Part shown: piece after piece, positions 10,601 to 36,183 of the stretch | Numbering within the stretch: position 1 is the stretch's first letter | Layout of the letters: each line of letters starts with the position of its first letter | NCBI GenBank assembly: GCA_030615945.1 | Contig: JAUWYG010000002.1 | Span: forward strand, 1 to 43,065 | DNA from: Candidatus Bipolaricaulota bacterium | Lineage (GTDB): Bacteria; Bipolaricaulota; Bipolaricaulia; UBA7950; UBA9294 | Direction of reading: 5' to 3' | Length of the DNA: 43,065 nt | The notes under the pieces: generated by a model | What the model was told of the DNA's origin: nothing | Database searches by the model: none | What the model saw: only the letters and a program-made list of their open reading frames with translations | Made by a program: the position numbers and the translations under genes

Positions 10601-12307
10601 ATGAGAAGCGGGCGATCAGGAGGAATTGTCATCGTTTGCCTCCTTGTGTTTGCGTTTGTCGCAAGCGGCAACGAGGTTCCCCTATTCGTCTGCGGCGAAC
10701 CGGTGTCCCTCATTCATAAAGCCTTTTGGGATGATGATCAACTACTGGTCCCTTTGAGTGAGTTTGGTCTTAAGTTGGGAATCGAGGCCACATACATTGA
10801 TGAGGAGGACTCGATCAGTCTCCGCTTTGGCGGGGGAAGACAGTTCTTCCCCACTGATCACTTTAAAACCTACGCCGGAGTTTACTATATCCCGCTTGAC
10901 GAATTGGCCGACCTCGTCGGGGCGAGGATACATACGATCGGCAAGGAGATCTACGTCGAGGCCGAACCTTCGTACCTCACTTCGCTTGAGGCAACCGCGG
11001 AACAAGTGACCGTTCGTTTCGATACTTTCACCCCCTACGAAACGATTGAGGGAGGACCGGGGACGATTCACCTTCGCTTTTACCACTGCTCCCTTGCTAC
11101 CGCCCCACGTCGACTCGCTGTGACCGGCGGACCAATCCTCTCGGTCAAGCTAATGGCAGGTCCGCAAAGCACGGTTGAGCTGGTAATCGAGGTATCTAGC
11201 GACTCCCTTCCTCAGACAAGGCGTTTCGAGGCACCTGGGTTCTATTCGGTCTCGCTCACCTTCGACCATCAACTTCTAACCGAGACACAGAAGGAAATCT
11301 CACCTTACATCACCTCCCACGAGATCGAGACCGACTTGGGTGAGGGACCGGTGAAGATCAAATACCTGTACGTAAAGGAATGGCACAATCACTACCGCTT
11401 AACCCCTGCGGTTCCTGAAGGCGGCGTGGGCACTATATCACCCTTAAAGGAGATGGCCCGTGCACACGGCGCGCACGCTGCGATTAACGCCAACTTCTTC
11501 GACACAGCAACCAATAATCCGGTCGGACTTCTGATCGTGAATGGGGTAGTTCTAAGCTCCAACTACGAACGCCGCGCAGCGTTGGGGATCGATTTATTTG
11601 GCCGGTTAACCTTTTTCAATCCGATCGTTAATCTCTACTTACGCTGTGGCGCGGAGAAGATCACAATCGACGATGTGAACCGGCCGATCAAGGCAGATGA
11701 ACTGATCGTCTACACTGAAGGCTACACTGGTCTTACTGCGCGCAGTGCTTCTCAATCCTTCCGTGTTGTCAAGGTGCGCGGCGATCGCGTCGTCGCTGCC
11801 CAATATTGCCCGTACGTAGTTGAAGATCGCTCCGCCACCCTCCTTGTGGCAAGTGGTACGGCGCGCGCGCGGTTGATAGGCATAACCGTTGGAGAAGAGG
11901 TGAACATAGAGTTCACTCTCGACCAAGGGGATCTCCTCGTCACCAACGTGGTTAGCGCCGGTCCACTCCTCATCTTAAACGGGAAGGATGTTCTCAACCT
12001 CAAAAGCGAGAGCTTTCAGCCGCAGTCCCATTTAGCAAGCGGCCTCGCCGCTCGTAGCGTGTTCGCCACTGACTACTACGGTGGATTGATCCTGCTCACG
12101 GTGGTGAAGGATGAAGAAAGCGCGGGAGCGAATTTCGACAACCTACTGAGTGTCCTTCACAGTCTGCCACAAAAGGTGAAGGACGCAATCGCGTTCGACG
12201 GTGGTCATTCAAGTTCGCTCGTGCTCAAGGACGGTGGCACTTACTGGGAGATCTTAAGTGGAGGACGGGTCGCGGTCGGCCTCCTCCTCGTCCCCACTGA
12301 TCGATGA
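10601..12307 (+). CDS. Secreted phosphodiester glycosidase-family protein with an N-terminal copper-amine-oxidase-like (stalk) domain
   Basis: Signal peptide. The C-terminal region has AAINANFFD...GLLIVNG...FDGGHSS, typical of the NAGPA-like/DUF2233 domain. Confidence 0.6.
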   Translation: MRSGRSGGIVIVCLLVFAFVASGNEVPLFVCGEPVSLIHKAFWDDDQLLVPLSEFGLKLGIEATYIDEEDSISLRFGGGRQFFPTDHFKTYAGVYYIPLDELADLVGARIHTIGKEIYVEAEPSYLTSLEATAEQVTVRFDTFTPYETIEGGPGTIHLRFYHCSLATAPRRLAVTGGPILSVKLMAGPQSTVELVIEVSSDSLPQTRRFEAPGFYSVSLTFDHQLLTETQKEISPYITSHEIETDLGEGPVKIKYLYVKEWHNHYRLTPAVPEGGVGTISPLKEMARAHGAHAAINANFFDTATNNPVGLLIVNGVVLSSNYERRAALGIDLFGRLTFFNPIVNLYLRCGAEKITIDDVNRPIKADELIVYTEGYTGLTARSASQSFRVVKVRGDRVVAAQYCPYVVEDRSATLLVASGTARARLIGITVGEEVNIEFTLDQGDLLVTNVVSAGPLLILNGKDVLNLKSESFQPQSHLASGLAARSVFATDYYGGLILLTVVKDEESAGANFDNLLSVLHSLPQKVKDAIAFDGGHSSSLVLKDGGTYWEILSGGRVAVGLLLVPTDR

Positions 12308-13818
12308 AACGCCTGGCTCGCGATGTCCTGTTAATGGCCCTGGCGACCGGCATCTCGCGAGTCTTTGGTCTCTTCCGCGACGTTACGATCGCTGATCGAT
12401 TCGGGGCTAGCGGGGCCTACGACGCATTCCTCGTCGCTTTCTTTCTCCCTCACTTTCTCCGCCAGCTCCTCGCGGAAGGGGCACTCTCCACCGCATTTGT
12501 TCCTGTCTTCACCGAGTCGCTTATCGCCGACAAGGAGGCAAACCGGTTTGCCAGCAACGTCCTCTCTATACTTATCATCCTCTTCCCGATCATCGTCGCT
12601 TTAGGAATCCTTCTTGCCCCGTACTATCTCCCGTTTTTGGCAAGTGGCTTCTCTGAAGAGAAGCTTGCTTTATCCATCCACCTGGCGCGCATTCTTTTCC
12701 CGTTTATCGCTCTTATGGGATTCGCTGCGGTGTTCATGGGGATCCTGAACGCGCACCATCGCTTCTTCGCCGCGTCGTTCGCACCGGTGTTGTTCAACCT
12801 GGGTATGATCAGCGGCGCCCTCTTCCTCTCTTCCAGTTTCTCGCTTGAACCGATCTATGGATTGGCCCTGGGGGCCCTGCTCGGTGGCGCAGGACAGCTC
12901 CTATTTCAGATCCCAGCCCTGCGCGGGGTTGGGTTCCATTTTCACTTCACCCTGACACCGCTTCATCCGGGAATCCGCCAAATGGGAAGATTGATGATTC
13001 CAGCACTCCTCGGGCTGGCCGTCACCCAAATTAACCTCCTCGTCGACAACAAGATTGCCTCACACCTGGGGGATGGAGGAATCTCCTCCCTGCAGTATGC
13101 GATGCGCCTGTTTCAACTCCCGCTGGGAGTGTTCGCAGTGAGCATCGCTTCCGCTCTCCTACCGCGTTTCTCGGCCGCCCTCGCCCGTGGGGAGCATGAT
13201 CGCTTCTCGGCACACATCAAGGATGGAATCAGTTCCAGCACGTTCATCCTGCTCCCAGCCATGGTCGGCCTGTACGCCATCGGCCCTGACGTCATTCGTC
13301 TGTTATTCGAGCATGGCAGCTTCTCCTTGCCCGATACGTTGCGCACAGCGCACGCCCTCTCATATTACCTCGTCGGTGTCCTCCCCTATGGGCTCATGTA
13401 CATATTCACCCGTGCTTTCTACGCTACAGGACGCACTACCCTCCCACTTCTCGCCTCCTGCTGCGCGGTGGCAGCGAACATCGCCTTCGATCTACTTCTT
13501 GTCGGACCGATGCGCGAAGGAGGACTCGCCTTGGCAACCTCGATCGCTGGGACCGTCAACGTTGCGATCCTCTTCCTGTTCTTATGGCGGACGATCCATC
13601 CTGATGGCATGCTGTTAAGGCGATTGGGAAAGATTGCTCTTGGTTCTGGGCTTGTCTTTGCCGTCGCCTGGGCAACGCGACAGTCAATCGGTGAGGGATC
13701 ACGAGCGCTGGCGGTCTTTCTCCCCACGCTTCTAGGAATCACGTTCTACCTGGTTTACGCCCGCGCAAGCGGCCTATGGGATCTGGTCAGATCAAGCGGC
13801 GAAGATCACTCGGGGTAA
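12304..13818 (+). CDS. murJ: Lipid II flippase MurJ
   Basis: 504 aa, polytopic: SRVFGLFRDVTIADRFGA...AFLVAFFLPHFLRQLLAEGALSTAFVPVF. ATGA overlap with the upstream gene. Confidence 0.88.
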   Translation: MKRLARDVLLMALATGISRVFGLFRDVTIADRFGASGAYDAFLVAFFLPHFLRQLLAEGALSTAFVPVFTESLIADKEANRFASNVLSILIILFPIIVALGILLAPYYLPFLASGFSEEKLALSIHLARILFPFIALMGFAAVFMGILNAHHRFFAASFAPVLFNLGMISGALFLSSSFSLEPIYGLALGALLGGAGQLLFQIPALRGVGFHFHFTLTPLHPGIRQMGRLMIPALLGLAVTQINLLVDNKIASHLGDGGISSLQYAMRLFQLPLGVFAVSIASALLPRFSAALARGEHDRFSAHIKDGISSSTFILLPAMVGLYAIGPDVIRLLFEHGSFSLPDTLRTAHALSYYLVGVLPYGLMYIFTRAFYATGRTTLPLLASCCAVAANIAFDLLLVGPMREGGLALATSIAGTVNVAILFLFLWRTIHPDGMLLRRLGKIALGSGLVFAVAWATRQSIGEGSRALAVFLPTLLGITFYLVYARASGLWDLVRSSGEDHSG

Positions 13819-22435: not shown

Positions 22436-23833
22436 ATGAATCATGACCGGGTTTGTTTACGAGACAAAAGAAAGGGGTTGGTCGTCCTCGTCTTAACCCT
22501 GTGGATCCTGGTTCTTCCCCTTGGATATCAGACACGCGCCGATACCAATGGCGATACTCCAGTTATTATCCTGGAGAAGAAACAGGGGGAGGAGGGGACA
22601 CTTCAACTCATCCTTGCAAGCGCTCCCGAGGGAGTGTACATGTACGATATTACGATTTCTGTGAGGGATAGTCGCATCGTGCACATCCGCTCGGCCAGGG
22701 GAATAGCGATCGCAGGGTTCTACTTTCAAGTGGTAAAGACAAGCGGGGACTCGATCGAGTTTCGCGCGTTGGACCTTGATCGGAGCGGTGTGTTGCCAGG
22801 AGCTCGGGATGTCATCCTGGCGGAGATCGACGTGGTAGGATTGGCGAGGGGACGAACGGGAATCGATGTGGAGGTCAATAAATTTATCGACCATCGGGAC
22901 CACAGGGTTGTCCCCCGGGTGGAGTCAATCTCGTTGGAGGTGTTTACCCCCGCTCCCCAATTATCCCCGATCGGAAGCTCTGTGAAGGTTCCTCAGGACC
23001 TGGACGGGGATGGTCTCTATGAAGATATCAATGGGGATGGGAGGCTCACCCCAGAGGATGTCTCCCTGTTTGCCCTTGATATCAACAGTGAGGCCATCCA
23101 GACGCATGAAGAATCTTTTGATTTTAATGAGGATGGGAAGATAGACCTTGAGGATGTCCAAGCATTGGCCGCCTTGGCCGAGAAGGCTAGTCCCATGCTT
23201 ACTAGCCTGCGGCTGGAACAGGGAAGAGGGGAAACAGGAAAGGAGGTTGCCCTCGAATTGCTCTTGGTCAGAGGAGCTCGTGGACTGCAGACCTACGATC
23301 TGGTTCTCTCTGTATCTGACCCCCGAGTGGCCCAGATCAAGGGAATAAAAAGTGATGCGATAGATCAGCGGTTCTTTCAGATCGTTCATCAGGACCCTGG
23401 TTCCATCGAGTTTCGGGCCGCGGACTTCAGGGATCAGATCCAGCCTGGGACGGATGGCGTTACCCTGGCGACGGTTATCCTCACAGGCATGAGCAAGGGC
23501 GAGGCGAAGCTCGACATCAAGGCCAGGGTGATGACGGATGATGAAGGAAACCTGATAGAGCCGTTGGTTCAGTCAGGCGGGGTAACGATAACCGTCTCCC
23601 TCTCACCGATTGGCGACTCAACCCACCGTCCACAGGATTTGGACTACGACGGACTCTACGAGGATGTGAATGGAGATGGGAGATTGACCTTTGCCGATCC
23701 GCTTTTGTTGGCCTTCAATCTTGGTAGCGAGGTGATCCAGGGAAACCCGGCTCTGTTTGATTTCAATGGCGATGGAAGGGTCGATTTCAATGACGCGGGC
23801 ACCTTGGCCACGCTCGTCGAAAAGTTTGAATAA
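22436..23833 (+). CDS. Secreted protein with two tandem units, each a cohesin-like beta domain followed by a dockerin-type Ca-binding repeat pair
   Basis: Signal peptide. Unit 1 is about aa 43-248 and unit 2 about aa 254-465. Each ends with SPIG(S/D)S..PQDLD(G/Y)DGLYED(I/V)NGDGRLT...FDFN(E/G)DG(K/R)(I/V)D(L/F)(E/N)D, which are duplicated EF-hand-like dockerin loops. Confidence 0.6.
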   Translation: MNHDRVCLRDKRKGLVVLVLTLWILVLPLGYQTRADTNGDTPVIILEKKQGEEGTLQLILASAPEGVYMYDITISVRDSRIVHIRSARGIAIAGFYFQVVKTSGDSIEFRALDLDRSGVLPGARDVILAEIDVVGLARGRTGIDVEVNKFIDHRDHRVVPRVESISLEVFTPAPQLSPIGSSVKVPQDLDGDGLYEDINGDGRLTPEDVSLFALDINSEAIQTHEESFDFNEDGKIDLEDVQALAALAEKASPMLTSLRLEQGRGETGKEVALELLLVRGARGLQTYDLVLSVSDPRVAQIKGIKSDAIDQRFFQIVHQDPGSIEFRAADFRDQIQPGTDGVTLATVILTGMSKGEAKLDIKARVMTDDEGNLIEPLVQSGGVTITVSLSPIGDSTHRPQDLDYDGLYEDVNGDGRLTFADPLLLAFNLGSEVIQGNPALFDFNGDGRVDFNDAGTLATLVEKFE

Positions 23834-24264: not shown

Positions 24265-24823
24265 GCGCTCACATTATATCTGAAAAAGGCATAGCCATCG
24301 TGAGGTGGCAGCGCAAAACCGTGGGTCTCTTAGAGACAGCCAGGTTGCCAGAGACAGGGAGGCTAGGATTTAATGTTGACTCTGTCGGGGGCGACCTTGA
24401 TTGTAGCTAGGAGATCTTTTTCTTTACCCCGTATTATTTTCGATGTGTGGTCCCCCTGGCTTTCCGGAGTTAGGTACGTTAAAACATTCACCGAACCTCC
24501 ACATCCCCTTCACGGTAGCTTTACAACTGAGAAGTAAAGTAGCGATGTACGAGAGCAACAATTCAGTATTGTGCCATTATGCTCTTGAATTCCGGAGCTT
24601 CTTGTACTGTAGATCGCAGTTCAGGAGTAGATTTACGCAGAGGAGAGCGAGGCTAGTCTAGGAAGAAGGAGGCACACAGCTATGACTGTTTTCCGGAAGC
24701 GTCCCCACGCTAGTAACCGAATTGAGTTATTCACTGTGTGCCTTCGTCATTATACCACAAAAGCCATCGTTTTGCCGTAATGGCAGTTACAACAGCAGAA
24801 AGAGAAAAAAGGAGATATCAAGA

Positions 24824-26698
24824 ATGAAGGAATTGATGTGGAGAATCGGGAGTCGAATGGAGTCTGGACAAGGGAAGGGACAGCACAGAAGGCGGTTGGT
24901 TCTGCTAGTTGGGATCGCGCTGCTTCTCCTCTTCTCACAGGCGCCGGCCCATCGTGTGCAAGCGGCACCGCCTCTGTGTGTCATGGAGATAGCGACGGAC
25001 AAGTCCGTATACCATCCGGATGAGCCCGTTCAGCTCAATATGTGGATTAAGGTAAATGCCAATCTAGACCTACCAGCAATAGAGAATGCACGCCTGGAGG
25101 TGGAATTAAAGCAGCCGTTCGGGACCTTTGTAACCCTAACCCATCGAGGAGGCATCTCCCTGCGCAAGGGAGCGGAGTGGGAGGAGCAGTTGCTCTCCCT
25201 TCCCATAACCGGAGAACCCTTCCGAAACATGGGCAACTATGAAGCCCATGCGGTGCTCCTCTCGCAGGCCGGTGAGATCTATTGCGAGGCCTATACTGTC
25301 TTCGCTATTGAAAGTATCTTTGGGAGGATGCCCGGCACGCGGACGCTCATCGTCACCTCAAGAAGGACGGAGCTGACGGAGCCGTTCGTATCCAAGTTGG
25401 CTGTCTGGCTTGAAGCAGCTTACCAAACCAAGGTCCAGGTACTCTATCAGGAAGGAGTCTATGAGGCCTATCAGAGCGGGCTCTATCGGGACTTTGATGT
25501 GCTCATCTATTACGCGACGGACTATCAGCAGTCCCCGCCCCCGGAGTTGATCAAGGACATCTTCGAAGGCGAAGGGAGAACCAAGAAGAAGGTGGTCTGG
25601 ATCGGTTACCACCTGGATAAGGTTCAGGCCTACCTGCGGCTGTATGGCTTAAGTTATGGAACGCTCTCTGGGGGGAATGAGCCGGGGAAACTGCTCTACC
25701 TCGATTCCGGAGTGAGCTACGACCTGCGCAACCCTGATTGCATCTCCGTTGAGGTGATCAACGACGACCTCGCTCGCGTCCGTGCCACCGTGGATGATGC
25801 CCCAATCATCGTCAGCGCCAAGCAGACCTATTATCCGGAGGACGGTGAGTGCTTCTACTTCGTCGGCTTCCATCCCACCTCCTACATTGCTCCCTTCGGC
25901 GCGCATCTCGTCTTCTGTGACATCCTAAATGAGGTCTATGGGATCGAGCGAGGGAAGATAGCCCTGGTGAGGCTGGAGGACATTCATGCCTTTACCGATT
26001 CTCAACAGTTACTCTCCATTACCGGCTTCTTGAGAAGCGAACGTGTTCCCTTCACCCTGGCCTTGATCCCGGTATACGTGGGTGGAGATGAGATAGAGAT
26101 CCGCTTAAGCCAGGATAGGGACTTCAGAATCAAGGTTAAGAACGCCCTCTTAGATGGAGGAGAGATCGTCCTCCATGGAGCTACCCACCAATATGATGAG
26201 GTGACCGCTGTGGATTATGAGTTCTGGGATGAGAAAACCGGCACTCCCATAGGCGGCACGGAATATGCCGAACAGCGCGTGGCAGATGCGCTGATGGAGA
26301 TCGAGTTCTCCGGACTTAGACCCTATCTTGCTGGCTGGGAGACCCCGCATTATAAAGCTGATGAAGAGGCCTATACCGTGTTTGAAAGATACTTTGAACT
26401 GATGTATGAGGACCCCCGTTGGGGGTTCGACCTGAAACGCATCCCCTATCCGGTGGAGACTGAGCGCAACTTGTATGTCCGCTCGCAATTGAGCTATGTG
26501 CGGGCGGACTCCCCAGATACGGATGTGAGCACGATACTCCAGGAGGCAACTCTACTAGCCGGCCTGGAACATGGCGCATTGGCCTCTTTCCACTACCATC
26601 CGGAGATGGGGCTCGAAAGGTTAAGGACTATCATCCAGGGCTTAAAGGAGCAAGGCTGGACCTTCAAACCGATCTCCTCCTTGCTAGGCACTGAATAA
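24824..26698 (+). CDS. Secreted DUF2334 (polysaccharide-deacetylase-like) protein with an N-terminal Ig-like domain
   Basis: AGGAG lies 7 nt before the ATG at 24824; the ORF-track extension to 24722 has no support. Signal peptide. LVRLEDIHAFT...VPFTLALIPVY...EIVLHGATHQYDE...EFWDE fits DUF2334. Confidence 0.65.
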   Translation: MKELMWRIGSRMESGQGKGQHRRRLVLLVGIALLLLFSQAPAHRVQAAPPLCVMEIATDKSVYHPDEPVQLNMWIKVNANLDLPAIENARLEVELKQPFGTFVTLTHRGGISLRKGAEWEEQLLSLPITGEPFRNMGNYEAHAVLLSQAGEIYCEAYTVFAIESIFGRMPGTRTLIVTSRRTELTEPFVSKLAVWLEAAYQTKVQVLYQEGVYEAYQSGLYRDFDVLIYYATDYQQSPPPELIKDIFEGEGRTKKKVVWIGYHLDKVQAYLRLYGLSYGTLSGGNEPGKLLYLDSGVSYDLRNPDCISVEVINDDLARVRATVDDAPIIVSAKQTYYPEDGECFYFVGFHPTSYIAPFGAHLVFCDILNEVYGIERGKIALVRLEDIHAFTDSQQLLSITGFLRSERVPFTLALIPVYVGGDEIEIRLSQDRDFRIKVKNALLDGGEIVLHGATHQYDEVTAVDYEFWDEKTGTPIGGTEYAEQRVADALMEIEFSGLRPYLAGWETPHYKADEEAYTVFERYFELMYEDPRWGFDLKRIPYPVETERNLYVRSQLSYVRADSPDTDVSTILQEATLLAGLEHGALASFHYHPEMGLERLRTIIQGLKEQGWTFKPISSLLGTE

Positions 26699-26718
26699 CA
26701 CCTTGAGAGGAAGAGACT

Positions 26719-26979
26719 GTGAAGAAAACTAACACGGCGGCAAAGAGAAGGGTCCAGTTCATCTTCCCCAGCCAGACCATCGAGGAGCTTGACCGGCTGA
26801 AGGAGCAGATGGGGGCCTCCTCGCGAACCGAGGTGTTGAAGACCGCCATCGAGCTTATGCATTGGGCTATGGCACGGCTGGCAAAAGGTGAGAAGATCGC
26901 GGCGGTAGGGAATGATGAGATATCGGAGACCATCGCTATTCCCGGTGCTCACTCCTTTACAAAAGAGCCGAGGCCGTGA
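26719..26979 (+). CDS. Ribbon-helix-helix protein embedded in the polysaccharide operon
   Basis: 86 aa with a GTG start: RRVQFIFPSQTIEELDRLKEQMGASSRTEVLKTAIELMHWA, a strand-helix-helix pattern. Its stop overlaps the GT2 start by 4 nt. Confidence 0.55.
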   Translation: MKKTNTAAKRRVQFIFPSQTIEELDRLKEQMGASSRTEVLKTAIELMHWAMARLAKGEKIAAVGNDEISETIAIPGAHSFTKEPRP

Positions 26980-28307
26980 CCATCCCGACTGATTTCCTCA
27001 CCTTCTTCTTCCTTTTCTACTGCGTCCTATACAACCTCTTCCTCTGTCTATGCTTCCTCGTCTTCCAATTGTTTTCCAGAAAGGGGAATCGGGCTGGTAA
27101 AGGCGTGGCTGCAACAGATTCAGTTAAAGAGCCGCCGATCATCACGGTGATGATCCCCGCACTGAATGAGGAGCAGGTCTTGAAAGAGACGGTCCAAAGA
27201 TTGCTCGCCCTCCCCTATCCTGGTCGGTTAGAGATCCTAATCATCGACGACTACAGCGACGATAACACGGCAGCCATCGCAGACAGGCTGAGCCTTGCAT
27301 CTGAGAGGGTCTATATTTTGCGCAGAGGCCCCTCTTGTTCGCGGCGCGGAAAGGGGGATGCCTTGAACCATGCCTTCTCTCACCTACTTGCCAGCTTCCC
27401 CAAACGAGATAGGGAAAACTGGGTCATCGGGGTCTTCGATGCCGACGGCCGGGCAGTCGAGGACGACTTTCTCATCGAGGTTGGGAGAGTATTCGGAGAC
27501 GATTCGGTAGCTGCTGCCCAGTGCGGGGTACGGATCAGGAACGGCCATCATCTGCTTGCCGCCCTTCAGGATGTCGAGTTTGCCACCTTCTCGTTTATCA
27601 CCCAAACCGTCCGTGACCGAACCTCAGGGGCGGTGGCTCTGGGAGGCAACGGGCAGTTCATCCGCGCCGCCGTTCTAAATCGGCTGAGCCAAGAGGGAGG
27701 CTGCTGGGATGTTTCAGCCCTCACCGAGGATTTGGATATCGGGGTCCGTATTCATTTAGCTGGTGGACGGATCAGGTTTATCAATCGATGGGTGGAGCAA
27801 GAGGGAGTAGAGTCCTTTAAAGCGCTCTTCAAGCAGCGGCATCGCTGGGCGTGGGGAACGCTGCAGGTCTTCTCAAAGCACCTCTTGAGTGGGAGAGTTT
27901 TTTTAGCCAAGCTTCCTCTAGTCAAGAAACTGGATTTGCACTACTACCTGAGCTTCTGGATAGTGCCCTTTGTCGTTCTCTTCTCCTTTCTCCTCTCCCT
28001 TCTTGACCTCACAGGGATTTTGAAGATCACGAATACTTTCGGCGTGGCTTTCCTGCTGGCTAACTCATTCAGCTTTATTCCAATGATGGTCTTGGGATTG
28101 GTGTGGGCCAAGGTGCCAACACATAAGATATTGTATTTGGTCCCCTTGGCAGTGATCTATGCCTATCACTGGATTCCTGTGCTCCTGGCAGGATTAGTGA
28201 GTATTCTTACCCATAGGCAGCCGCACTGGGTGAAGACCAAACGCTACGCGCTTGTGGAAATGAGCACAGAAAAGGAAACGATCGCAGTGGAGGTAATAGC
28301 AAAGTGA
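26976..28307 (+). CDS. Processive family-2 glycosyltransferase (PgaC/IcaA/cellulose-synthase-like, membrane-embedded)
   Basis: N- and C-terminal TM helices. Motifs IPALNEE, IIDDYSDDNT, FDADG, TEDLD and QRHRWAWG (D,D,D,QxxRW). Confidence 0.8.
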   Translation: MTIPTDFLTFFFLFYCVLYNLFLCLCFLVFQLFSRKGNRAGKGVAATDSVKEPPIITVMIPALNEEQVLKETVQRLLALPYPGRLEILIIDDYSDDNTAAIADRLSLASERVYILRRGPSCSRRGKGDALNHAFSHLLASFPKRDRENWVIGVFDADGRAVEDDFLIEVGRVFGDDSVAAAQCGVRIRNGHHLLAALQDVEFATFSFITQTVRDRTSGAVALGGNGQFIRAAVLNRLSQEGGCWDVSALTEDLDIGVRIHLAGGRIRFINRWVEQEGVESFKALFKQRHRWAWGTLQVFSKHLLSGRVFLAKLPLVKKLDLHYYLSFWIVPFVVLFSFLLSLLDLTGILKITNTFGVAFLLANSFSFIPMMVLGLVWAKVPTHKILYLVPLAVIYAYHWIPVLLAGLVSILTHRQPHWVKTKRYALVEMSTEKETIAVEVIAK

Positions 28308-30421
28308 GATCCGAAAAAGTGCTCATCGTCGTTTCCCTACTACTCGGCCTGGGATTGATGCCCTTCAGCGCAGTGGCTTCTGTCTCGCCTCAACACCTGG
28401 CCCTCTCATTCATCCTGACCGAGATGATGAACGAAGAAGGGGGCATCTATACTCAATATCGGACTCTCCCCAGTTCTGAAGAAGGAGCAGCCGCGGGCCA
28501 CGAGGTCCTGCTCCAGAACAATAGCCTGTTGATGCTCTACGCCGCTCGAACAGGAGACCAGCAACTCCTCGATCAACAAGTGGAGGTAATCAAGGATTAC
28601 TTCCTGGAAGAGAACCTCGGGTTGCTCCACTGGAAGTTGGCCTCCACGATGCACCACTCGGAGAGTTCCTGGGGGACCTATTCCAATTCCCCGGGGGACA
28701 GCCTGCGGGTGGCGGAGGTTCTCCTCCTGGCCTATGAGTATTGGGAAGATGAGACCTATGAAGAACTAGCCCTCAAGATTGGCGAGGGGCTCAAAAGATA
28801 TAACATCGCGCCGGATAAGACGCTGCGCTATTATGCTTCCTGGACCCCGGCGCTCGAGTCAGCGGGATATGGCGATAGAGTCGTTCTGGCGCAGCTCGAC
28901 TTTGGGGCTATGGCCAGATTGACTCAGCAGGATAGGGCTTGGGAAGAGTTCATCGTCGTGAACCTAGAGATAGCTCTCTCGGGGATGACCGATAAAGGAC
29001 TATACTATCAAGACTATCTTCCTGAGCAGCAGAAGTATGAAACAGGCAACGGTAGCATGATCGAGATGGCCCGGGTTGCATATCATCTTGCCGTCTATGG
29101 TCGAAGTCTTGGTGATCCTGCTGCGTCAGATGCAGCGCAAAAATTTCTTGCCTTTGTCAAAGAGGAGTATACAACCAAGGACAGGATACCCGGACGATAT
29201 GATCCTGAGACCGGCATACCGCTGACAACCTGGGAGAACATCGCTGTATATGCGCTGATCGCCCGAATTGCTCTAGAGCTTGAGGACTCCTCGTTTGCTG
29301 AGGAGATCGTCGAGGAGAAGATCCTGCCTCTCCAACAACTGGACCCGCAGTCTCCTGTCTATGGTGCGTTTACAGTTAGATTCGACGATGCCTATGTCTC
29401 GGACACACTTGAGGCTCTTCTGGCCCTAGTGACCCGTGGAGGTCCTGCGGCTGTGACAGAGCAGGAGCCCATTCATGCTGTATGGTATCTTGGTTGGCAA
29501 AAGGAAAGCTATCTTCAACCCAGTGTAGTAGATGATCTACGGCAGATTCAGTCAAGGCTTTGCCCGAACTATATCGGTCTCTCCGCCATCGTTTATCAAG
29601 ATAAGAAGACCTCCTCCGACCCCTATCGCGATCCAGAGAGAACCGCAAGCGATGAGGCCCTCCGCCACGTGATCTCCCAAATCCATCGGATGGGGATGGG
29701 GGTAATCCTTCTCACTCCCCTATTGCCCGACGACGGAACATGGGAGGGGGCAATCACGCCCGAAGATGTCAGCGTATGGTTCGAGCACTGGCGAGAGATC
29801 CTCCTGCATTACGCCGAGCTGGCGGAAGAGACCCGCGTAGAGATCCTGCTCCTGGGCTCGGAGCTCGTCACCCTGCGCGACCGAACGAATGATTGGAACA
29901 GGCTAATAGTGGCCATCCGAAATCGTTATCACGGCAAGCTCAGCTACTCGGTCAACTTCTGGCTCAATCGCGATGGATATCGGCAGGTCCTGAAGATGTC
30001 CCAATGGAAGCACATGGATTACATTGGAGTGACGGGCTACTTTGAACTTACCGACAAGAACGATCCTTCCGTAGAAGAACTTGAGGCAGCTTGGCATAAT
30101 GATCGCCATGACCAGGACATCTTGGCTGATCTAGAGGGCTTGAACAGGAAATATGAAAAACCGGTCGTCTTTTGGGAGATCGGTTACTTTAGTAAGGATG
30201 AGACTAACGTCTATCCCTGGAACTACCCTCGCCCAGGTGAGGTGGATGAGGGTGAGCAGACTGACTGTTGGACTGCATTTCTGAATGTATTTCAAGGTAT
30301 CGATTGGTTCAAAGGATACGGGATTTATGCCGAGCAAGTAGGGCTGCCGCCGAAGCCCCTAGGTTATGATGTGCTAGGGAAACTAGCAGAAGAGCTGCTG
30401 AGAAGGGAGTGCAGTGAATAA
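28304..30421 (+). CDS. Large secreted two-domain glycosidase-like protein (helical N-terminal half plus TIM-barrel-like C-terminal half)
   Basis: Signal/anchor sequence. The C-terminal half has clan GH-A-style strand-end motifs (ILLLGSELV; VVFWEIGYFS) and conserved aromatic residues. The family cannot be assigned by eye. 4-nt overlap with the GT2 gene. Confidence 0.5.
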   Translation: MRSEKVLIVVSLLLGLGLMPFSAVASVSPQHLALSFILTEMMNEEGGIYTQYRTLPSSEEGAAAGHEVLLQNNSLLMLYAARTGDQQLLDQQVEVIKDYFLEENLGLLHWKLASTMHHSESSWGTYSNSPGDSLRVAEVLLLAYEYWEDETYEELALKIGEGLKRYNIAPDKTLRYYASWTPALESAGYGDRVVLAQLDFGAMARLTQQDRAWEEFIVVNLEIALSGMTDKGLYYQDYLPEQQKYETGNGSMIEMARVAYHLAVYGRSLGDPAASDAAQKFLAFVKEEYTTKDRIPGRYDPETGIPLTTWENIAVYALIARIALELEDSSFAEEIVEEKILPLQQLDPQSPVYGAFTVRFDDAYVSDTLEALLALVTRGGPAAVTEQEPIHAVWYLGWQKESYLQPSVVDDLRQIQSRLCPNYIGLSAIVYQDKKTSSDPYRDPERTASDEALRHVISQIHRMGMGVILLTPLLPDDGTWEGAITPEDVSVWFEHWREILLHYAELAEETRVEILLLGSELVTLRDRTNDWNRLIVAIRNRYHGKLSYSVNFWLNRDGYRQVLKMSQWKHMDYIGVTGYFELTDKNDPSVEELEAAWHNDRHDQDILADLEGLNRKYEKPVVFWEIGYFSKDETNVYPWNYPRPGEVDEGEQTDCWTAFLNVFQGIDWFKGYGIYAEQVGLPPKPLGYDVLGKLAEELLRRECSE

Positions 30422-31226
30422 AGCTATGAGAGTATCTACATTAAGCAACCTGGGTGGATATCACTATATATCCAGGAGTAGATATGAATTCAAATACTTG
30501 GTTAGGCCGGAGGTTGCTGAAAGAGTGGTCGATTTCCTAGCACCCCATCTTGAAATGGATGAGCATTGTCGCGGAAGGGACAGCAATTCCTATACCGTCA
30601 GAAGTATATATTTTGATAGCCCTGATTTTGAATGTTTTCACGAAAAGCTTGGAGGGCAGAAACACAGGGAGAAATTTAGAATCAGAACTTACAACAATCC
30701 GGGCTCCAGACCCCTCTTTTTGGAGAATAAGATAAAGGACGGTTTATCCTACGTAAAAGACAAAGTCACTCTCAATGCGGATACCCTGAAAGCAATAAAG
30801 AACCTGGACTATGACAGTTTAAGCGAGGTGGATAGGCATGACAAAGATAAGCGGATCCTTGACAAGTTCTTTTTCTATATTTATCGCAAGGCCTACTCTC
30901 CTGTCGTGCTAGTAGTATATGACCGAGAGGCGTATGTCTATCCGGGGCAAGATACGATTAGAGTAACATTGGATAAAAATCTCAGGGCGAGGATGTTTCC
31001 CAATTTGGCACAGATATATGACGAAGAGAGATTAGAGTATCTGCTTTACCACTGGATCATTTTAGAGATTAAGTTTACCGATATTTTGCCGCGATGGATG
31101 ATGCCGCTGAACTCCCTCTTTTATCTGAAGCGACAAGCTTGCTCCAAATACTGCACATCTGTGGCTCATTTCATCGGTGAAATCCCCTCTTTCAAGGATG
31201 GTTTGGCCTATGTTCGGAGAATCTGA
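30414..31226 (+). CDS. VTC-domain (CYTH-like triphosphate tunnel, polyphosphate-polymerase-like) protein
   Basis: RYEFKYLV...YTVRSIYFDSPDF...REKFRIRTYN...LFLENKIKDG...KDKV is the characteristic tunnel-strand pattern. The GTG at 30414 follows AAGGGAG and overlaps the upstream stop by 8 nt. Confidence 0.75.
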   Translation: MNKAMRVSTLSNLGGYHYISRSRYEFKYLVRPEVAERVVDFLAPHLEMDEHCRGRDSNSYTVRSIYFDSPDFECFHEKLGGQKHREKFRIRTYNNPGSRPLFLENKIKDGLSYVKDKVTLNADTLKAIKNLDYDSLSEVDRHDKDKRILDKFFFYIYRKAYSPVVLVVYDREAYVYPGQDTIRVTLDKNLRARMFPNLAQIYDEERLEYLLYHWIILEIKFTDILPRWMMPLNSLFYLKRQACSKYCTSVAHFIGEIPSFKDGLAYVRRI

Positions 31227-31896
31227 ACCTATCGTAGTTGCCTGGATTGACGTACTCAGCACCATATCGCTGAGTCTGCTGCTTGGAATTTATGTAGCTT
31301 TCGTATATAGAACAGTGACTCCTGGATTTAACTACTCAGTCTCCATTTTGCATACTCTTCTGTACCTTTCCATGATTGTTTCCCTAGTGATGCTGATAAT
31401 CTCAAATCAAATCGCACGCGCATTCACCCTTGTCGGGGCGCTTGCCGTCATCCGCTTTAGGACGCCGATTAAGGATGCCAAGGATGCGGCGTTCATATTT
31501 CTCGCCCTTGCCGCAGGCATGGGGGCAGGGGTAGGCATGTATCTAGAAACAGCCTTGGGTACAACTCTTATCGGCGTCTTCATGTTGCTGATACATTACG
31601 CAAAATTCGGCTTGCGCGCGAAGAGAGAGACTCTGGTCAAGTTCACCGTACCCCTTAACGGCGAAGAGACTTCTCTTTATCACAGGGGGATTTTTGAACG
31701 CTTCCTTCGAGAGTACAAGCTCATAAATGCCCGGTCTTTGCATGAAAGCAGGAGACTGGAGCTAACATTTCTTGTCAAACCTCAGAAGGCGACGGACATG
31801 ATCAAGTTCTCCCAGGCGCTCTCTTCCATACCGCAGATCGAGAAGGTATCCGTAATAGTTAGTGAAGATGAGGAGCTGACTCAGAATATCTTTTAA
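31177..31896 (+). CDS. DUF4956 multi-pass membrane protein
   Basis: About 5 TM helices with the family motif LVGALAVIRFRTPIKDAKDAAFIF. The start is uncertain (GTG 31177, ATG 31198 or ATG 31210), and every option overlaps the VTC stop at 31226. Confidence 0.7.
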   Translation: MKSPLSRMVWPMFGESEPIVVAWIDVLSTISLSLLLGIYVAFVYRTVTPGFNYSVSILHTLLYLSMIVSLVMLIISNQIARAFTLVGALAVIRFRTPIKDAKDAAFIFLALAAGMGAGVGMYLETALGTTLIGVFMLLIHYAKFGLRAKRETLVKFTVPLNGEETSLYHRGIFERFLREYKLINARSLHESRRLELTFLVKPQKATDMIKFSQALSSIPQIEKVSVIVSEDEELTQNIF

Positions 31897-31916
31897 TGGC
31901 TACAAAGGAGGGTAAG

Positions 31917-34625
31917 ATGAACTCTTCATTGAGCGTTGGAAACTTGCAACTGAGATGGTGCATAGTAGGCGCACTTTTGAGCCTTTTTCTGGCAGCTACT
32001 GTCGTTCCTGCCCAGACGCAATCGGTCGTCATAAATGAGTTCTTGGCCTCTAACGGCACGATATTAGCCGATGAAGATGGAGACTACGAAGATTGGATCG
32101 AGTTTTATAACCCGACAACCGAGCCAATAAACCTGGACGGCTATACCCTGACCGACAAGCCGGATATCCCTAATAAGTGGACGTTCCCAGCAGTCACGAT
32201 CCAACCGAATGGATTTCTGCTCATCTGGGCCTCCGGCAAGGATCGCCGCACGCCAGGTAACTGGGATTTCAAAAGACCGCTCATCCTAGAGTTTGAAAGT
32301 GCGGGCTACTATGACGGAGATTTTGCGAGGATCTTGGTCAATGGCGAGGACAAGTCCCTGAACCTCAGGGGCACGAATATTGTGAGGCTTGATGAGCAGG
32401 GCGACTATATAGAAAGCACAGTGTATGATACTTTTGAATCCCCCGATGCTGATGATGATATGGTTCGCTATTTCGAGAACTTGTCGAATGGAGAGATCGT
32501 CATCTTTGCGATCAGAGATGAAGCGTCCGACAATTTGAACTCACAAGCGAGATCTGCCTTAGAAGCTTTAGGCAGTAAATATATAGGGCAATTAGGGCAT
32601 CAGGATTCTTGGGGCATGATTAGCGTAGTGGGGCAGGGGAAGCTCGCAGAAGACTATCAGCCTAGCAGTGAGGGCCCTGCTATGGCCAAGCTTGCAAGTA
32701 AGATGACTTTGCACACCAATTTCAAGATCAACAAGGATGGCGAGTTTTTGGGCCTTTACGCCCCCGATGGGACTGAAATCGACTCTGGGAAGTTCGTTAG
32801 TCAGGTGCGTGATGTCTCCTTCGGCCGTCAGCCTGACGGAGGGGAAGGCTGGTGTCTCTTCTCCGAACCGACCCCGAGCGCCCCGAACGATACAGCCTGC
32901 GCAACTGGGATTGCCGAGCCACCTGAACCTTCCACGAGCAGCGGATTCTACGAGGGGCCCATTACAGTAACATTGTCCGCAATGCCAGAGGAGGTAGCGA
33001 TCTATTACACTCTGGATGGTTCAATACCAACAGAGGCCAGCCCGCGATACATTGATCCCTTAGTCATCGACAGGACGCAAGTCCTCCGAGCCCGCGCCTT
33101 CAAGGATGGTCTGATTCCAAGCCCAATCAGGACATATACCTATCTCATAGACGAAGACGTCCATCTGCCGGTCCTCTCATTGGTGTCCGATCCGGCAAAC
33201 TTATGGGACGATGAGATCGGTATTTATGTAGAAGGATGCTACCCAGCTCATCCCAACTATGTGCAGCACGGTCGAGAATGGGAACGACCGGTGTCAGTAC
33301 AATTCTTCGAAAAGGATGGCTCACTAGGGTTCGCATTGGGCGCAGGCATTCGCATCTTTGGAGGATACACTAGAATTTACCCGAAAAAGAGCTTTGTCTT
33401 GCATTTTCGCGAGCGATATGGCCAAGATCGGCTGGACTACCCCGTGTTCTCCGGGGATGAACCAGGTAAGCCTGACCTGCAAAGTTTGAAGAGTCTTGTA
33501 GTAAGAAATGCTGGGGAAGACGGCTATTGCAGCAATCCCCGAATCCGCGATCCTCTAATGCATACTCTATGGTCAGAGGAAGGCGGGCTAGTTTCAGCGA
33601 AAAGGTCTGTTTCCGTCTATCTCAACGGAGTACCATGGGGCATTTACAACCTCCGTGAGCATATCGACACAGATTATATCGCCACAAACTTCGGCGTTAA
33701 AGACTTTGATTTGATCACTGAGGAAAGAACTGTTAAGGCAGGTGATGCAGTCCACTGGGACGCCACGCTTTCATTCTTCGAAGGCCATGATTTATCCTCA
33801 GATGTTAATTACGCCCAAGCACAAAAGCTCATCGACGTCAAGAACTTTACAGATTTCCAGATCTTCCAGATATATGGTGCAAATATCGATCTAGTAGCCA
33901 ATCTAGTAAAATTCAGGCCTAGGACCCCCGAGGGAAAATGGCAGTGGATCATGTGGGATACAGATCATGCCTTCGCGCTGGAATCATACAATCCCGTTTC
34001 ACACAACACGCTTGCTTGGGGAACGCGGACCAGACCACAGCCCGATCTCGGACCGCCTTGGGATGATGAAAGCACTTCGTGGTCAACCCTGATACTAAGG
34101 AAGTTGCTGGAAAACGAGGAATATTGTAATTACTTCATCAATCGTTTCGCGGATTTATTGAACACCACATTGCACCCGAAGAATGTCATCGCCAAAATCG
34201 ATGCGCTGGCCTCGATCATCGAGCCGGACATCCCTCTGGAGATGGCTCGTTGGAGCAGCGAGTGGGGAGGAACTCTTGAAGAATGGTTAGCGAATGTTCA
34301 AGGGCTTAGAGACTTTGCAAAACAGCGCCCGGGCTTTGTACGAGAACACATCATCGAGGAGTTTGGGCTTATGGGCACAGCGCTTCTGACCATCGAACCG
34401 CCATCAGGTGAAGGCTCCGTTAGGGTAAACACGATCTTACCAACGACCTACCCTTGGCATGGCTCGTACTTTCAAGGCATCCCGGTGAAGTTACAGGCTG
34501 AACCAGCGCCAGGTTATAAATTTACCGGTTGGGGTGATGCTTCCCTGCCCAGGAGCGCCATCGTCGTTGTTTCGTTGCCCGAATCCTACAGCGTTCAGGC
34601 TCTCTTCCTCCCATATGAGAAATAA
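31917..34625 (+). CDS. Secreted CotH-family kinase-like protein: split lamin-tail domain with a nested FAM3/ILEI-like domain, chitobiase-C/Fn3-associated domain, CotH domain, C-terminal Ig-like repeat
   Basis: AGGAGG lies 5 nt before the ATG at 31917; an alternative ATG at 31896 overlaps the upstream stop. Signal peptide. LTD (INEFLASN...DWIEFYNP...LDGYTLTD). CotH core ([10 protein letters not shown]...[9 protein letters not shown]..PKKSF...LVVRNAGED...IRDPLMH). Confidence 0.8.
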   Translation: [902 protein letters not shown]

Positions 34626-34683
34626 AATGAAGATTCTCTTCTCTTTCCTCAAGCCAAGCTGTAGCGTATAGCGGAGGCATTTT

Positions 34684-35802
34684 GTGAAGATTCTAACGAT
34701 TTTCGGCACAAGGCCTGAGGCGATCAAACTTGCTCCGGTTATCAAGGAATTGCAAAAGTCCCCGCTGGTCGAACCGCGGGTGTGCGTCACGGCACAGCAC
34801 CGTGAGATGCTCGACCAGGTGTTGGAGGTGTTCCACATTGTACCCGACTGTGATCTGGACATTATGCACGAAGATCAGAGCCTGTTTGACATCACATCTC
34901 ACGCCCTCCGATTGCTCGAGGATGTGCTAAAGGAAGAAGGGCCTGACATCGTATTGATCCAGGGGGACACCACGACGGCATTTGTCGCCAGCCTTGCTGC
35001 CTACTACTTAAAGATCAAGATCGGCCATGTGGAGGCTGGTCTGCGTACAGCTGATAAGTTCAACCCCTTCCCTGAGGAGATCAATCGGAGGCTTGTGGAT
35101 GTTCTGTCCGATCTCTGGTTTGCCCCCACACAAAAAGCTGAAGCAAACCTGCTCCGGGAAGGATTCCCTTCCGGAAACATCTTTGTCACGGGAAACACGG
35201 TGATCGATGCCCTATTTTTCACCTTGAATCGAGAAGTCCCGATCGCGCGCCAGCAGTGGCTCAGCGATCTGGGGCTATCGAGGGGAGATTCGCGACTGAT
35301 CTTGGTCACCGGCCATCGAAGAGAGAGTTTCGGTGAGGGCTTTAAGCAGATCTGCTACGGGTTGCAGAAGATCGCAGAGCACAACAAGGATCTTCAGATC
35401 GTCTACCCCGTACACTTAAATCCCCGTGTTCAAGAACCGGTACATCGTATCTTAGGAGGAATAGAGAACATCAGCCTGATCGAACCGTTAGACTATGAAC
35501 GGTTTGTATGGTTGATGAATCAGTGCTATCTGGTATTGACCGACTCCGGAGGAATTCAAGAGGAGGCCTCCTCATTGGGGAAACCGATCCTTGTGATGCG
35601 GGAGAAGACCGAGCGTCCGGAGGCGGTTGAAGCAGGTATTGCTAGGCTAGTCGGAACAGATTGCGACAAGATATTCACAGAAACGCAGCGGCTGTTAGAC
35701 AATTCTGCCATCTATGAGAAGATGGGAAAAGCAATAAGCACGTTTGGCGATGGCCGGGCAGCTGAGCGGATCGTTGAAATACTGCTAAACCATGTTAAGT
35801 GA
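34684..35802 (+). CDS. wecB: UDP-N-acetylglucosamine 2-epimerase (non-hydrolysing)
   Basis: MKILTIFGTRPEAIKLAPV...QGDTTT...HVEAGLRT...PFPEE...LTDSGGIQEE. Confidence 0.92.
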   Translation: MKILTIFGTRPEAIKLAPVIKELQKSPLVEPRVCVTAQHREMLDQVLEVFHIVPDCDLDIMHEDQSLFDITSHALRLLEDVLKEEGPDIVLIQGDTTTAFVASLAAYYLKIKIGHVEAGLRTADKFNPFPEEINRRLVDVLSDLWFAPTQKAEANLLREGFPSGNIFVTGNTVIDALFFTLNREVPIARQQWLSDLGLSRGDSRLILVTGHRRESFGEGFKQICYGLQKIAEHNKDLQIVYPVHLNPRVQEPVHRILGGIENISLIEPLDYERFVWLMNQCYLVLTDSGGIQEEASSLGKPILVMREKTERPEAVEAGIARLVGTDCDKIFTETQRLLDNSAIYEKMGKAISTFGDGRAAERIVEILLNHVK

Positions 35803-36183
35803 GGGGGATGTATTCACGCCTTTGCTTTTTTGAAAAAGGGAGAAAGCTGTTTCAAGAGGCTGGGACTCATAAGCGATGGCAAGACGCACTTTGCTCATTC
35901 CCATTTACCTCCTGAATGTGTTTTTTGCGCATCCAGGGAGGCTTTCGGTAACCCGGCTATCTCTTTACTTTGAGACCCGTGGCTTTGCGCGCCTGGATCG
36001 CTCCAGTGTTACCATTTCGTTGTCTCCCGCAAGCAAGTGACCCTTTCGGGGTCGAAAGGACTGCTCTTCTTCTACCACCTCCTTTGCCTTAGTATTGCTA
36101 TAAATGCCCGCTCACCTTTGTGAAAGGCGAAGGGGTACACCGATCAATTGCTCGTGCATCTTCGTCACTGTAGTAGATCGTCG

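Follow-up and report, generated by a model that had tools for sequence, protein, structure and literature searches.

Why should an operon that resembles a machinery for exopolysaccharide (EPS) synthesis also carry genes for a candidate polyphosphate (polyP) polymerase, a DUF4956 membrane protein and a protein of the CotH kinase family with a predicted secretion signal? The question is raised by eight open reading frames (ORFs) which span 24824-35802 on the plus strand of a 43,065-nucleotide stretch of DNA from a Candidatus Bipolaricaulota bacterium; this whole stretch is called the window below. We found that the system is a CotH/VTC/DUF4956 cassette of the type known from Pel loci, carried by a GT2 operon similar to Listeria Pss and led by a riboswitch for cyclic di-GMP (c-di-GMP), and that it does not amount to a pathway of an entirely new category. 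The EPS pathway does not depend on the cassette, an optional part which would enhance or modulate it. On balance we lean to the reading that polyP would be made at the membrane and would act together with CotH on the matrix induced by c-di-GMP.

Operon architecture, riboswitch and exopolysaccharide core

The region is one tightly coupled operon of eight genes. Its leader and its coding part contain the following features.

24278-24352, plus strand: leader of the operon, aptamer of a c-di-GMP-I (GEMM-I) riboswitch (Rfam RF01051, 58.9 bits; gathering score 35 bits)
24323-24430, plus strand: putative expression platform, in which a long alternative hairpin precedes the U-run GAUCUUUUUCUUU (minimum-free-energy fold)
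24824-26698, plus strand: DUF2334-domain protein, 624 aa, with an N-terminal signal or anchor; putative polysaccharide-modifying enzyme (Pfam DUF2334, 1.1e-34)
26719-26979, plus strand: ribbon-helix-helix (RHH) protein, small and soluble, 86 aa (Pfam RHH_1, 4e-4, a weak match at the cutoff)
26976-28307, plus strand: GT2 glycosyltransferase, membrane-embedded, predicted processive synthase-translocase (Pfam GT2, 1.5e-31)
28304-30421, plus strand: secreted two-domain glycoside hydrolase (GH), 705 aa, GH126-like and GH113-like (Pfam GH113, 1.6e-43)
30414-31226, plus strand: cytoplasmic VTC/triphosphate-tunnel protein, candidate Vtc4-like polyP polymerase (Pfam VTC, 2.7e-47)
31210-31896 (longest ORF from 31177), plus strand: DUF4956 membrane protein (Pfam DUF4956, 8e-12)
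31896-34625, plus strand: secreted multidomain CotH-family kinase, 909 aa, as predicted (Pfam CotH, 6.5e-44)
34684-35802, plus strand: WecB, non-hydrolysing UDP-N-acetylglucosamine (UDP-GlcNAc) 2-epimerase (Epimerase_2, 9e-118; TIGR00236)

A first-pass annotation, made from the sequence of the window alone, had spoken of nine genes; eight ORFs were found, and its own list named eight. The gene order and every domain family it had assigned were confirmed with Pfam, RHH_1 being borderline. The junctions are, in order, +20, -4, -4, -8, -17 (-50 with the longest DUF4956 ORF), -1 and +58 nt. These agree with the spacings given earlier, and the overlap between the VTC and DUF4956 genes now has a length. 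The stop of the hydrolase gene and the start of the VTC gene share the 8-nt GTGAATAA at 30414-30421, which was read directly from the sequence as before. It had been argued that the EPS half and the VTC half are expressed as one unit, and this is matched with the tight coupling. A promoter and terminator scan of 23.8-36.4 kb showed no internal signal at 30.4 kb, but it counted no more signals than are expected in shuffled sequence and was therefore uninformative. A tRNA scan found none. N-terminal signal or anchor segments are present in the DUF2334, hydrolase and CotH proteins, and the VTC, WecB and RHH proteins are soluble.

The genes around the operon (PolA, MurJ, FtsH, DXR) are bacterial, and homologues with names belong to Candidatus Bipolaricaulota/Acetothermia. 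Loci or contigs compared with the window are given L-numbers here, and their proteins P-numbers. Because the operon arrangement was found again in many independent contigs at 50-95% protein identity, it is far beyond chance. The two halves also co-occur repeatedly elsewhere (L015, L016, L092, L094, L106, L108 and others), as the neighbourhood check proposed with the first-pass annotation had asked. What that annotation overlooked was the leader riboswitch at 24278-24352, together with the distinct composition and separability of the cassette.

The leader aptamer lies about 470 nt 5' of the first operon gene. Using Rfam and a model built from its own matches, we detected aptamers 5' of DUF2334 in about 20 loci (L001, L003, L005, L008, L015, L016, L092-94, L098, L102, L103, L105-108, L110, L111 and L121-123), so that an aptamer precedes DUF2334 in essentially all related bacterial loci having sufficient upstream sequence. 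The sole exception was L091, where no aptamer was found 5' of DUF2334 and the upstream region is unrelated. The aptamer alignment showed stem covariation across relatives. In the minimum-free-energy fold of 24270-24450 (z = -3.2), the alternative hairpin takes up the 3' half of the aptamer. The hairpin and U-run have the anatomy of a transcription terminator which would be relieved by the ligand, and we infer that c-di-GMP would be the ON signal.

GT2 orthologues of three related loci (L009, L013, L014; P0039, P0040) have neither riboswitch nor DUF2334, and P0039/P0040 carry a C-terminal extension of about 90 aa with two LGxILVxxGxxxxxxLxxALxxQ-like repeats. The extension resembles the c-di-GMP-binding MshEN domain by eye, and Pfam did not recognise it as such. 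If the likeness were real, it would mean that c-di-GMP control had shifted from RNA to protein.

The GT2 motifs DDxSxD, DAD, TED and QRHRW are invariant in homologues. The AlphaFold2 (AF2) model of the protein, with a predicted local distance difference test (pLDDT) score of 89, gave its best Foldseek matches with BcsA, hyaluronan synthases (HAS) and chitin synthase (1e-14). On the invariant motifs and the likeness of this model to cellulose, hyaluronan and chitin synthases, the protein is predicted to be a BcsA/HAS-like processive synthase-translocase, which upholds the earlier reading of its D,D,D,QxxRW signature as that of a processive membrane synthase.

The hydrolase, earlier described as large and glycosidase-like, is indeed a glycosidase, and it is refined here to two domains. 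Residues 30-375 are GH126-like (phmmer against PDB: 3REN (CPF_2247), 8.5e-21; PssZ 6R2M, 7.3e-5), and residues about 400-700 belong to the beta-mannanase-like GH113 (4CD6, 3.8e-19). A GH126-type family identity has been described for the PssZ class (PMC7479077).

The DUF2334 protein has one N-terminal hydrophobic segment and always adjoins GT2 in the loci compared. The first-pass annotation had called it deacetylase-like, and this could not be confirmed: neither single-sequence nor profile searches gave a significant match in PDB, so the deacetylase label stays an assumption, and there was no CE4 match among the operon ORFs in Pfam. The RHH protein, without hydrophobic segment, sits between DUF2334 and GT2 throughout the clade of at least 60% identity, and it is probably a regulator of the operon. 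The identity of WecB was clear (TIGR00236, 508 bits against an equivalog cutoff of 210), as had been proposed.

GT2 and DUF2334 form the conserved core, and wecB is linked to both even in distant archaeal-type loci; on archaeal-looking contigs the gene order wecB-GT2-DUF2334 is common. In L004 (10001-13187) and L006, GT2 and DUF2334 stand on contigs with Topo VI, RNase P p29, SUI1 and Rpb subunits of RNA polymerase. The L004 proteins have 77% (GT2) and 73% (DUF2334) identity to those of the window. Since this identity is found on a contig with archaeal markers, a recent transfer between domains is implied.

Our best guess for the product is a beta-linked polymer of the N-acetylmannosamine (ManNAc) type, because of the wecB-GT2-DUF2334 linkage and the GH126 and GH113 domains of the hydrolase. 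The GH126 domain and the conserved wecB also place the system near Listeria Pss and B. subtilis Yda. In Listeria, Pss is a beta-1,4-ManNAc polymer that is made by the GT2 protein PssC and cleaved by PssZ, with PssB listed as a deacetylase; ydaJKLMN of B. subtilis is an analogous c-di-GMP-dependent EPS system. The window operon shares with these systems (pssA-E and pssZ; ydaJKLMN) a c-di-GMP-dependent, synthase-dependent EPS plan, a GT2, a GH126-type hydrolase (PssZ/YdaJ), a putative polymer-modifying enzyme (DUF2334 here, PssB in Listeria) and a ManNAc chemistry implied by wecB. It differs in that Pfam found among the operon ORFs neither a BcsB-like PssD/YdaN nor the degenerate-GGDEF receptor PssE/YdaK, and in that a riboswitch would convey the c-di-GMP signal, the hydrolase carries a fused GH113 domain, an RHH gene is embedded, and the VTC-DUF4956-CotH cassette is present.

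The analogy drawn earlier with poly-N-acetylglucosamine (PNAG) and cellulose systems is looser. The operon has in common with pgaABCD/icaADBC a small GT2 bearing the D,D,D,QxxRW signature, a putative modifying enzyme outside the cytoplasm and a hydrolase that accompanies them. However, there is no PgaD/IcaD (the small gene encodes the soluble RHH protein), no CE4 domain as in PgaB/IcaB, no PgaA, and also no BcsB and no PilZ. As a PgaC/IcaA equivalog the GT2 protein scored 105.9 bits with TIGR03937, against a trusted cutoff of 422.3. The wecB gene and the GH113/GH126 hydrolase point away from the beta-1,6-GlcNAc of PNAG.

The VTC-DUF4956-CotH cassette and its distribution

In Vtc4, nine tunnel residues are required for polyP synthesis, and one of them, K458, is absent from the inactive Vtc2/3. 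The VTC profile matched Vtc4 (3G3Q) at 1.5e-21, and K27, R89, R91, K106, Y169, R171, E218, S244 and K245 of the window protein occupy all nine catalytic positions (K200, R264, R266, K281, Y359, R361, E426, S457 and K458 of Vtc4, in the same order). They are invariant across 21 diverse homologues. The protein thus carries the full active site of the Vtc4 polyP polymerase, and polyP synthesis itself is a prediction from these residues. No SPX or DUF202 was matched by Pfam in the operon ORFs.

The yeast VTC complex couples polyP synthesis to membrane translocation. The window system resembles this complex (Vtc4/Vtc3/Vtc1) in its Vtc4-like tunnel domain with a complete catalytic set and in its obligatory small multi-helix membrane partner. 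It differs in lacking SPX and in having DUF4956, a possibly MgtC/YhiD-like protein, as partner instead of the three-helix DUF202 channel. The AF2 model of DUF4956 (pLDDT 71) has five transmembrane helices and a C-terminal beta-alpha-beta-beta-alpha-beta arrangement, which is ACT-like. A faint match to NCBIfam MgtC/SapB (E = 0.008) was far below cutoff, and one DUF4956 homologue bears PF16316 and PF02308 together. We tried DUF4956 as a channel of the yeast VTC type and rejected it; Foldseek found no VTC chain and gave weak ACT-domain matches only (E >= 8e-3).

The CotH protein is built from a signal, LTD, ILEI, CHB_HEX_C/Fn3_assoc, CotH and InlB-B-repeat-like modules. As a single sequence it found nothing in PDB, and a profile of 23 sequences matched B. 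cereus CotH (5JD9) at 9e-40. D665, N669 and D688 are conserved and align with the residues changed in D228Q and D251A, mutations which inactivate B. subtilis CotH. It is predicted to be an active secreted kinase with intact catalytic residues and modules of glycan-binding type. With the spore-coat CotH of B. subtilis and B. cereus it shares the Pfam family, the 5JD9 profile match and the equivalents of D228 and D251, but it is secreted, has multiple glycan-binding-type modules in its 909 aa and belongs to a host in a non-sporulating candidate phylum. The earlier description of a predicted polyP polymerase plus a secreted atypical kinase is therefore kept for both proteins.

The first-pass annotation knew of no EPS pathway with a CotH kinase or a VTC enzyme, and here it must be corrected, as Pel loci of Gram-positive bacteria have both (PMC7112168; PMC12345266). 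In Gram-positive pelDEADAFG, cotH and the genes for a polyP polymerase, DUF4956 and DUF4832 are contiguous as accessory genes (Whitfield et al. 2020, PMC7112168), and such loci occur in streptococci, clostridia and bifidobacteria (PMC7112168; PMC12345266). In S. intermedius, deletion of the CotH gene gave less Pel and deletion of the DUF4956 gene more Pel, and each deletion halved aggregation (PMC12345266).

The window is matched with these loci in having CotH, a VTC-type polyP polymerase and DUF4956 contiguous on the same strand as the EPS operon, 3' of a synthase-dependent hexosamine-polymer operon, beside a glycoside hydrolase and non-essential for polymer synthesis. Unlike Pel, the EPS core consists of GT2, DUF2334, GH126/GH113 and WecB instead of PelD/E/A/F/G, and none of PelF (GT4), PelG, PelD, PelE and PelA was found by Pfam among the operon ORFs. 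The order is VTC-DUF4956-CotH, CotH bears LTD-ILEI-CHB_HEX_C where the Pel CotH has FN3, control would be by a c-di-GMP-I riboswitch, and the host is a member of Bipolaricaulota. A study of 2025 reported that the synteny of the trio was not found outside Pel loci (PMC12345266). Contrary to this, the trio does occur outside them, in the window and in more than 15 related contigs, where it is joined to the GT2-type EPS synthase family. Trio and EPS genes occur in identical or permuted synteny in L008, L009, L013-16, L092, L094, L096, L102, L106, L108, L111, L120 and L125.

A search anchored on VTC matched 484 species-level genomes, and the best 80 loci were analysed. Of the 79 that were informative, 77 have DUF4956 after VTC, and CotH lies within 10 kb of VTC in 22 of 80. 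VTC-DUF4956 is a near-invariant pair across phyla, and the third partner varies between CotH, a periplasmic adaptor and Cthe_2159. In at least 29 VTC loci of the Bacteroidota/Calditrichota type (L027-L089, e.g. L040 8935-9990), a conserved ORF of about 355 aa lies directly upstream, and its profile matches periplasmic adaptors (membrane-fusion proteins), namely ZneB (2.7e-8), MacA (4e-8) and EmrA (1.7e-7). An iterated hidden Markov model search for CotH found none in most Bacteroidota-type VTC loci. The adaptor-VTC-DUF4956 set is an undescribed three-gene unit which suggests, by guilt by association, export of the VTC product. The carbohydrate-binding beta-helix protein Cthe_2159 precedes VTC-DUF4956 on a Ca. 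Bipolaricaulis anaerobius-like contig (L171 7159-10687).

Among loci anchored on GT2, the cassette lies intact 3' of the hydrolase gene in 9 of 14 informative contigs of the clade of at least 60% identity; two hold deletion remnants (L101, L110) and three are without it (L095, L107, L123). The clade of 52-56% has it in some loci (L008, L009/13/14, L001) and misses it in others, and below 45% it is never present. The L101 remnant (7469-8148) joins a 72-aa VTC fragment to a 3' fragment of CotH, and L101 has no equivalent of window 30650-34143. This locus is a mosaic, with 98% identity to the window over CotH-3'/wecB/riboswitch and 76% over the synthase part. In L110 (11117-11536), a 140-aa VTC fragment abuts wecB.

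Composition points in the same direction. GC falls to 0.45-0.49 over VTC and DUF4956 (window 30001-34000), and the GC content at third codon positions (GC3) of VTC is 0.49, against 0.64-0.71 in neighbouring operon genes. The low GC is consistent with a separate acquisition of the cassette. In view of its lower GC3, its solitary occurrence and its deletion in relatives, the cassette is a separable accessory that probably moves horizontally.

Possible roles of the cassette

The reading which we favour, with some reserve, can be put as a sequence of steps. c-di-GMP would switch the operon on through the leader riboswitch, and WecB would make UDP-ManNAc. GT2 would polymerise the sugar and thread the chain across the membrane. 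The polymer would then be modified on the outside by the DUF2334 protein, probably by de-N-acetylation, and trimmed by the GH126+GH113 hydrolase. As product we expect a beta-linked polymer of the Listeria Pss/B. subtilis Yda kind, which would contain ManNAc and be partly cationic. Beside the synthase, at the inner face of the membrane, VTC would make polyP from ATP, and DUF4956 might anchor VTC or pass polyP outward. The cationic matrix may in turn be altered or cross-linked by the polyanionic polyP and by phosphorylation through CotH, or these may adjust how much matrix accumulates.

A functional link between the cassette and EPS is argued by four observations. The cassette was captured by two unrelated machineries, and its position between the hydrolase gene and wecB is conserved, with overlaps of 8 nt and 1 nt. 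Where the locus is split in L008, GH113 keeps with VTC-DUF4956-CotH and the riboswitch keeps with DUF2334-GT2. In one lineage a GT2::VTC fusion (P0044) has DUF4956 and CotH after it. That the product of VTC is exported is favoured by the adaptor genes of diderms and by the secreted partners (CotH, Cthe_2159) seen elsewhere.

Several points weigh against this reading. DUF2334 was not tied to a deacetylase fold by the PDB sequence and profile searches, and the MgtC/ACT-like model of DUF4956, which shows no similarity to the yeast VTC channel, would fit a regulator no less than a transporter. The cassette is deleted in L101 and L110 and absent from L095, L107 and L123. Its GC3 of 0.49-0.55 is set apart from 0.60-0.71 in the other operon genes and 0.67-0.72 in housekeeping genes. 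The trio is also found by itself, away from any EPS genes, in L010 and L017-19 (other Bipolaricaulota), in L021/22 and in Vicinamibacterales (Acidobacteriota). The P0044 fusion occurs on two contigs which are 100% identical and thus count as a single lineage, and no further GT2::VTC fusion was found among 1.84 billion representatives. In S. intermedius, deletion of the VTC gene had no phenotype, aggregation included (PMC12345266).

The cassette might instead be regulatory and not structural. Secreted or surface CotH would phosphorylate a protein of the secretion machinery or matrix, DUF4956 and VTC would adjust ATP or phosphate, and EPS output would be set with the polymer unchanged and no polyP in the matrix. 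Such post-translational regulation would act in place of c-di-GMP control or in addition to it. Whitfield et al. proposed such a role for Pel (PMC7112168), and it agrees with the altered amounts of Pel in the S. intermedius CotH and DUF4956 mutants, in which the polymer is still made (PMC12345266), with the apparent resemblance of DUF4956 to MgtC plus an ACT ligand-sensing fold, and with the dispensability of the cassette in relatives. We nevertheless consider it rather unlikely. The window operon is already predicted to be under c-di-GMP control at the RNA level, and CotH, with its glycan-binding-type modules, is exported away from cytoplasmic machinery; VTC keeps the equivalent of K458, which separates the polymerising Vtc4 from inactive Vtc2/3, and the periplasmic-adaptor context in diderms points to export of something. 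If the cassette were an independent mobile unit, for example for envelope or extracellular polyP in stress, metal or phosphate handling, it would have been inserted and co-transcribed with no mechanistic link to the polymer. This would account for the solitary trios of Acidobacteriota and other Bipolaricaulota, the distinct GC3, the mosaic identity of L101, the clean deletions in L101 and L110, and the non-EPS partners of VTC-DUF4956 in most phyla. It would not account for separate capture by GT4/PelF-type Pel loci and by GT2 loci, for the conserved and overlapping placement, for GH113 accompanying the VTC unit in the split L008 or for the GT2::VTC fusion, and so we regard it as improbable.

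The triphosphate-tunnel (TTM) superfamily is functionally diverse. The VTC protein could accordingly be a triphosphatase, a nucleotide cyclase or an enzyme which transfers phosphate to the growing glycan or to a lipid carrier, with CotH using ordinary ATP released at the surface. The bacterial protein is without the SPX and DUF202 parts of the yeast subunits, and its deletion in S. intermedius was silent (PMC12345266), but all nine residues for polyP synthesis in Vtc4, K458 included, are kept and invariant across the diverse homologues, which makes this alternative very improbable in our view.

Returning to polyP and CotH acting on the induced matrix, we can also extend it into a more general proposal, which at present is doubtful. 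In it, VTC-DUF4956 would do in bacteria what the VTC machine does in eukaryotes, as a polyP synthase coupled to a surface exporter and helped by periplasmic adaptors in diderms. At this operon and at Pel loci it would be co-induced with a cationic hexosamine polymer, and in the one lineage with the fusion it is physically joined to the synthase. The exported polyP would serve as a cross-linker of the matrix and as a phosphoryl donor for secreted CotH where ATP is absent, so that the glycan or matrix proteins would be phosphorylated.

A phosphate-linked role of the cassette in the matrix is possible. Bacterial polyP is attributed to cytoplasmic PPK1/PPK2, and VTC-type polymerases of bacteria are, to our knowledge, essentially unstudied. 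What is new is the capture of the trio by a second, unrelated EPS machinery under predicted c-di-GMP riboswitch control, with intact catalytic sites, a VTC::synthase fusion in one lineage, and a VTC-DUF4956 core with export adaptors in other phyla. What had been a peculiarity of Pel operons in streptococci becomes a general, testable hypothesis of phosphate chemistry in the biofilm matrix, which possibly covers polyP and kinase activity outside the cell. For the uncultivated phylum Bipolaricaulota, the operon also offers a first point of entry to the function of a matrix system.

Second riboswitch and neighbouring genes

Three further features lie close to the operon.

35944-36023, minus strand: second c-di-GMP-I riboswitch, convergent with wecB and the operon 3' end (RF01051, 51.4 bits)
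35785-35904, minus strand: ORF of 39 codons with an AGGAGG Shine-Dalgarno, 3' of the minus-strand riboswitch (sequence reading, translation)
22436-23833, plus strand: secreted protein of 465 aa with two repeats, each ending in a dockerin/EF-hand Ca-binding module (Pfam Dockerin_1, 2.8e-13)

The minus-strand riboswitch has a counterpart in L101. The 39-codon ORF overlaps the 3' end of wecB by 18 nt, and a CCUCCC upstream could sequester its Shine-Dalgarno. The riboswitch may govern this micro-protein, or else a transcript that runs antisense into the operon. More c-di-GMP-I riboswitches were seen in relatives (L016 18493-18935, minus strand; L123 1720-2942, plus strand), where they precede proteins of about 103-115 aa with an RHH-like N-terminus followed by repeats, as well as several secreted proteins in a row. 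This suggests that a c-di-GMP regulon of considerable size is based on riboswitches in these Bipolaricaulota.

The dockerin protein belongs to a separate transcription unit in the window. Its relatives, found by tblastn, adjoin EPS or trio genes in L001, L003, L008, L011, L012 and L016, and it could be a protein of the matrix or a substrate of CotH. A cohesin-like reading was not supported by a PDB search.

Farther away, window 10601-13818 (plus strand) contains a gene which overlaps the start of the gene for the MurJ flippase and whose 568-aa product has a phosphodiester-glycosidase domain (NAGPA); a sugar-phosphodiester-cleaving enzyme 12 kb from the EPS locus could be connected with it or could stand there by coincidence. 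At 1942-3426 (minus strand) the window encodes an unusual protein in which a cytidine/dCMP deaminase domain is fused to HATPase_c_4 and to a winged-helix domain.

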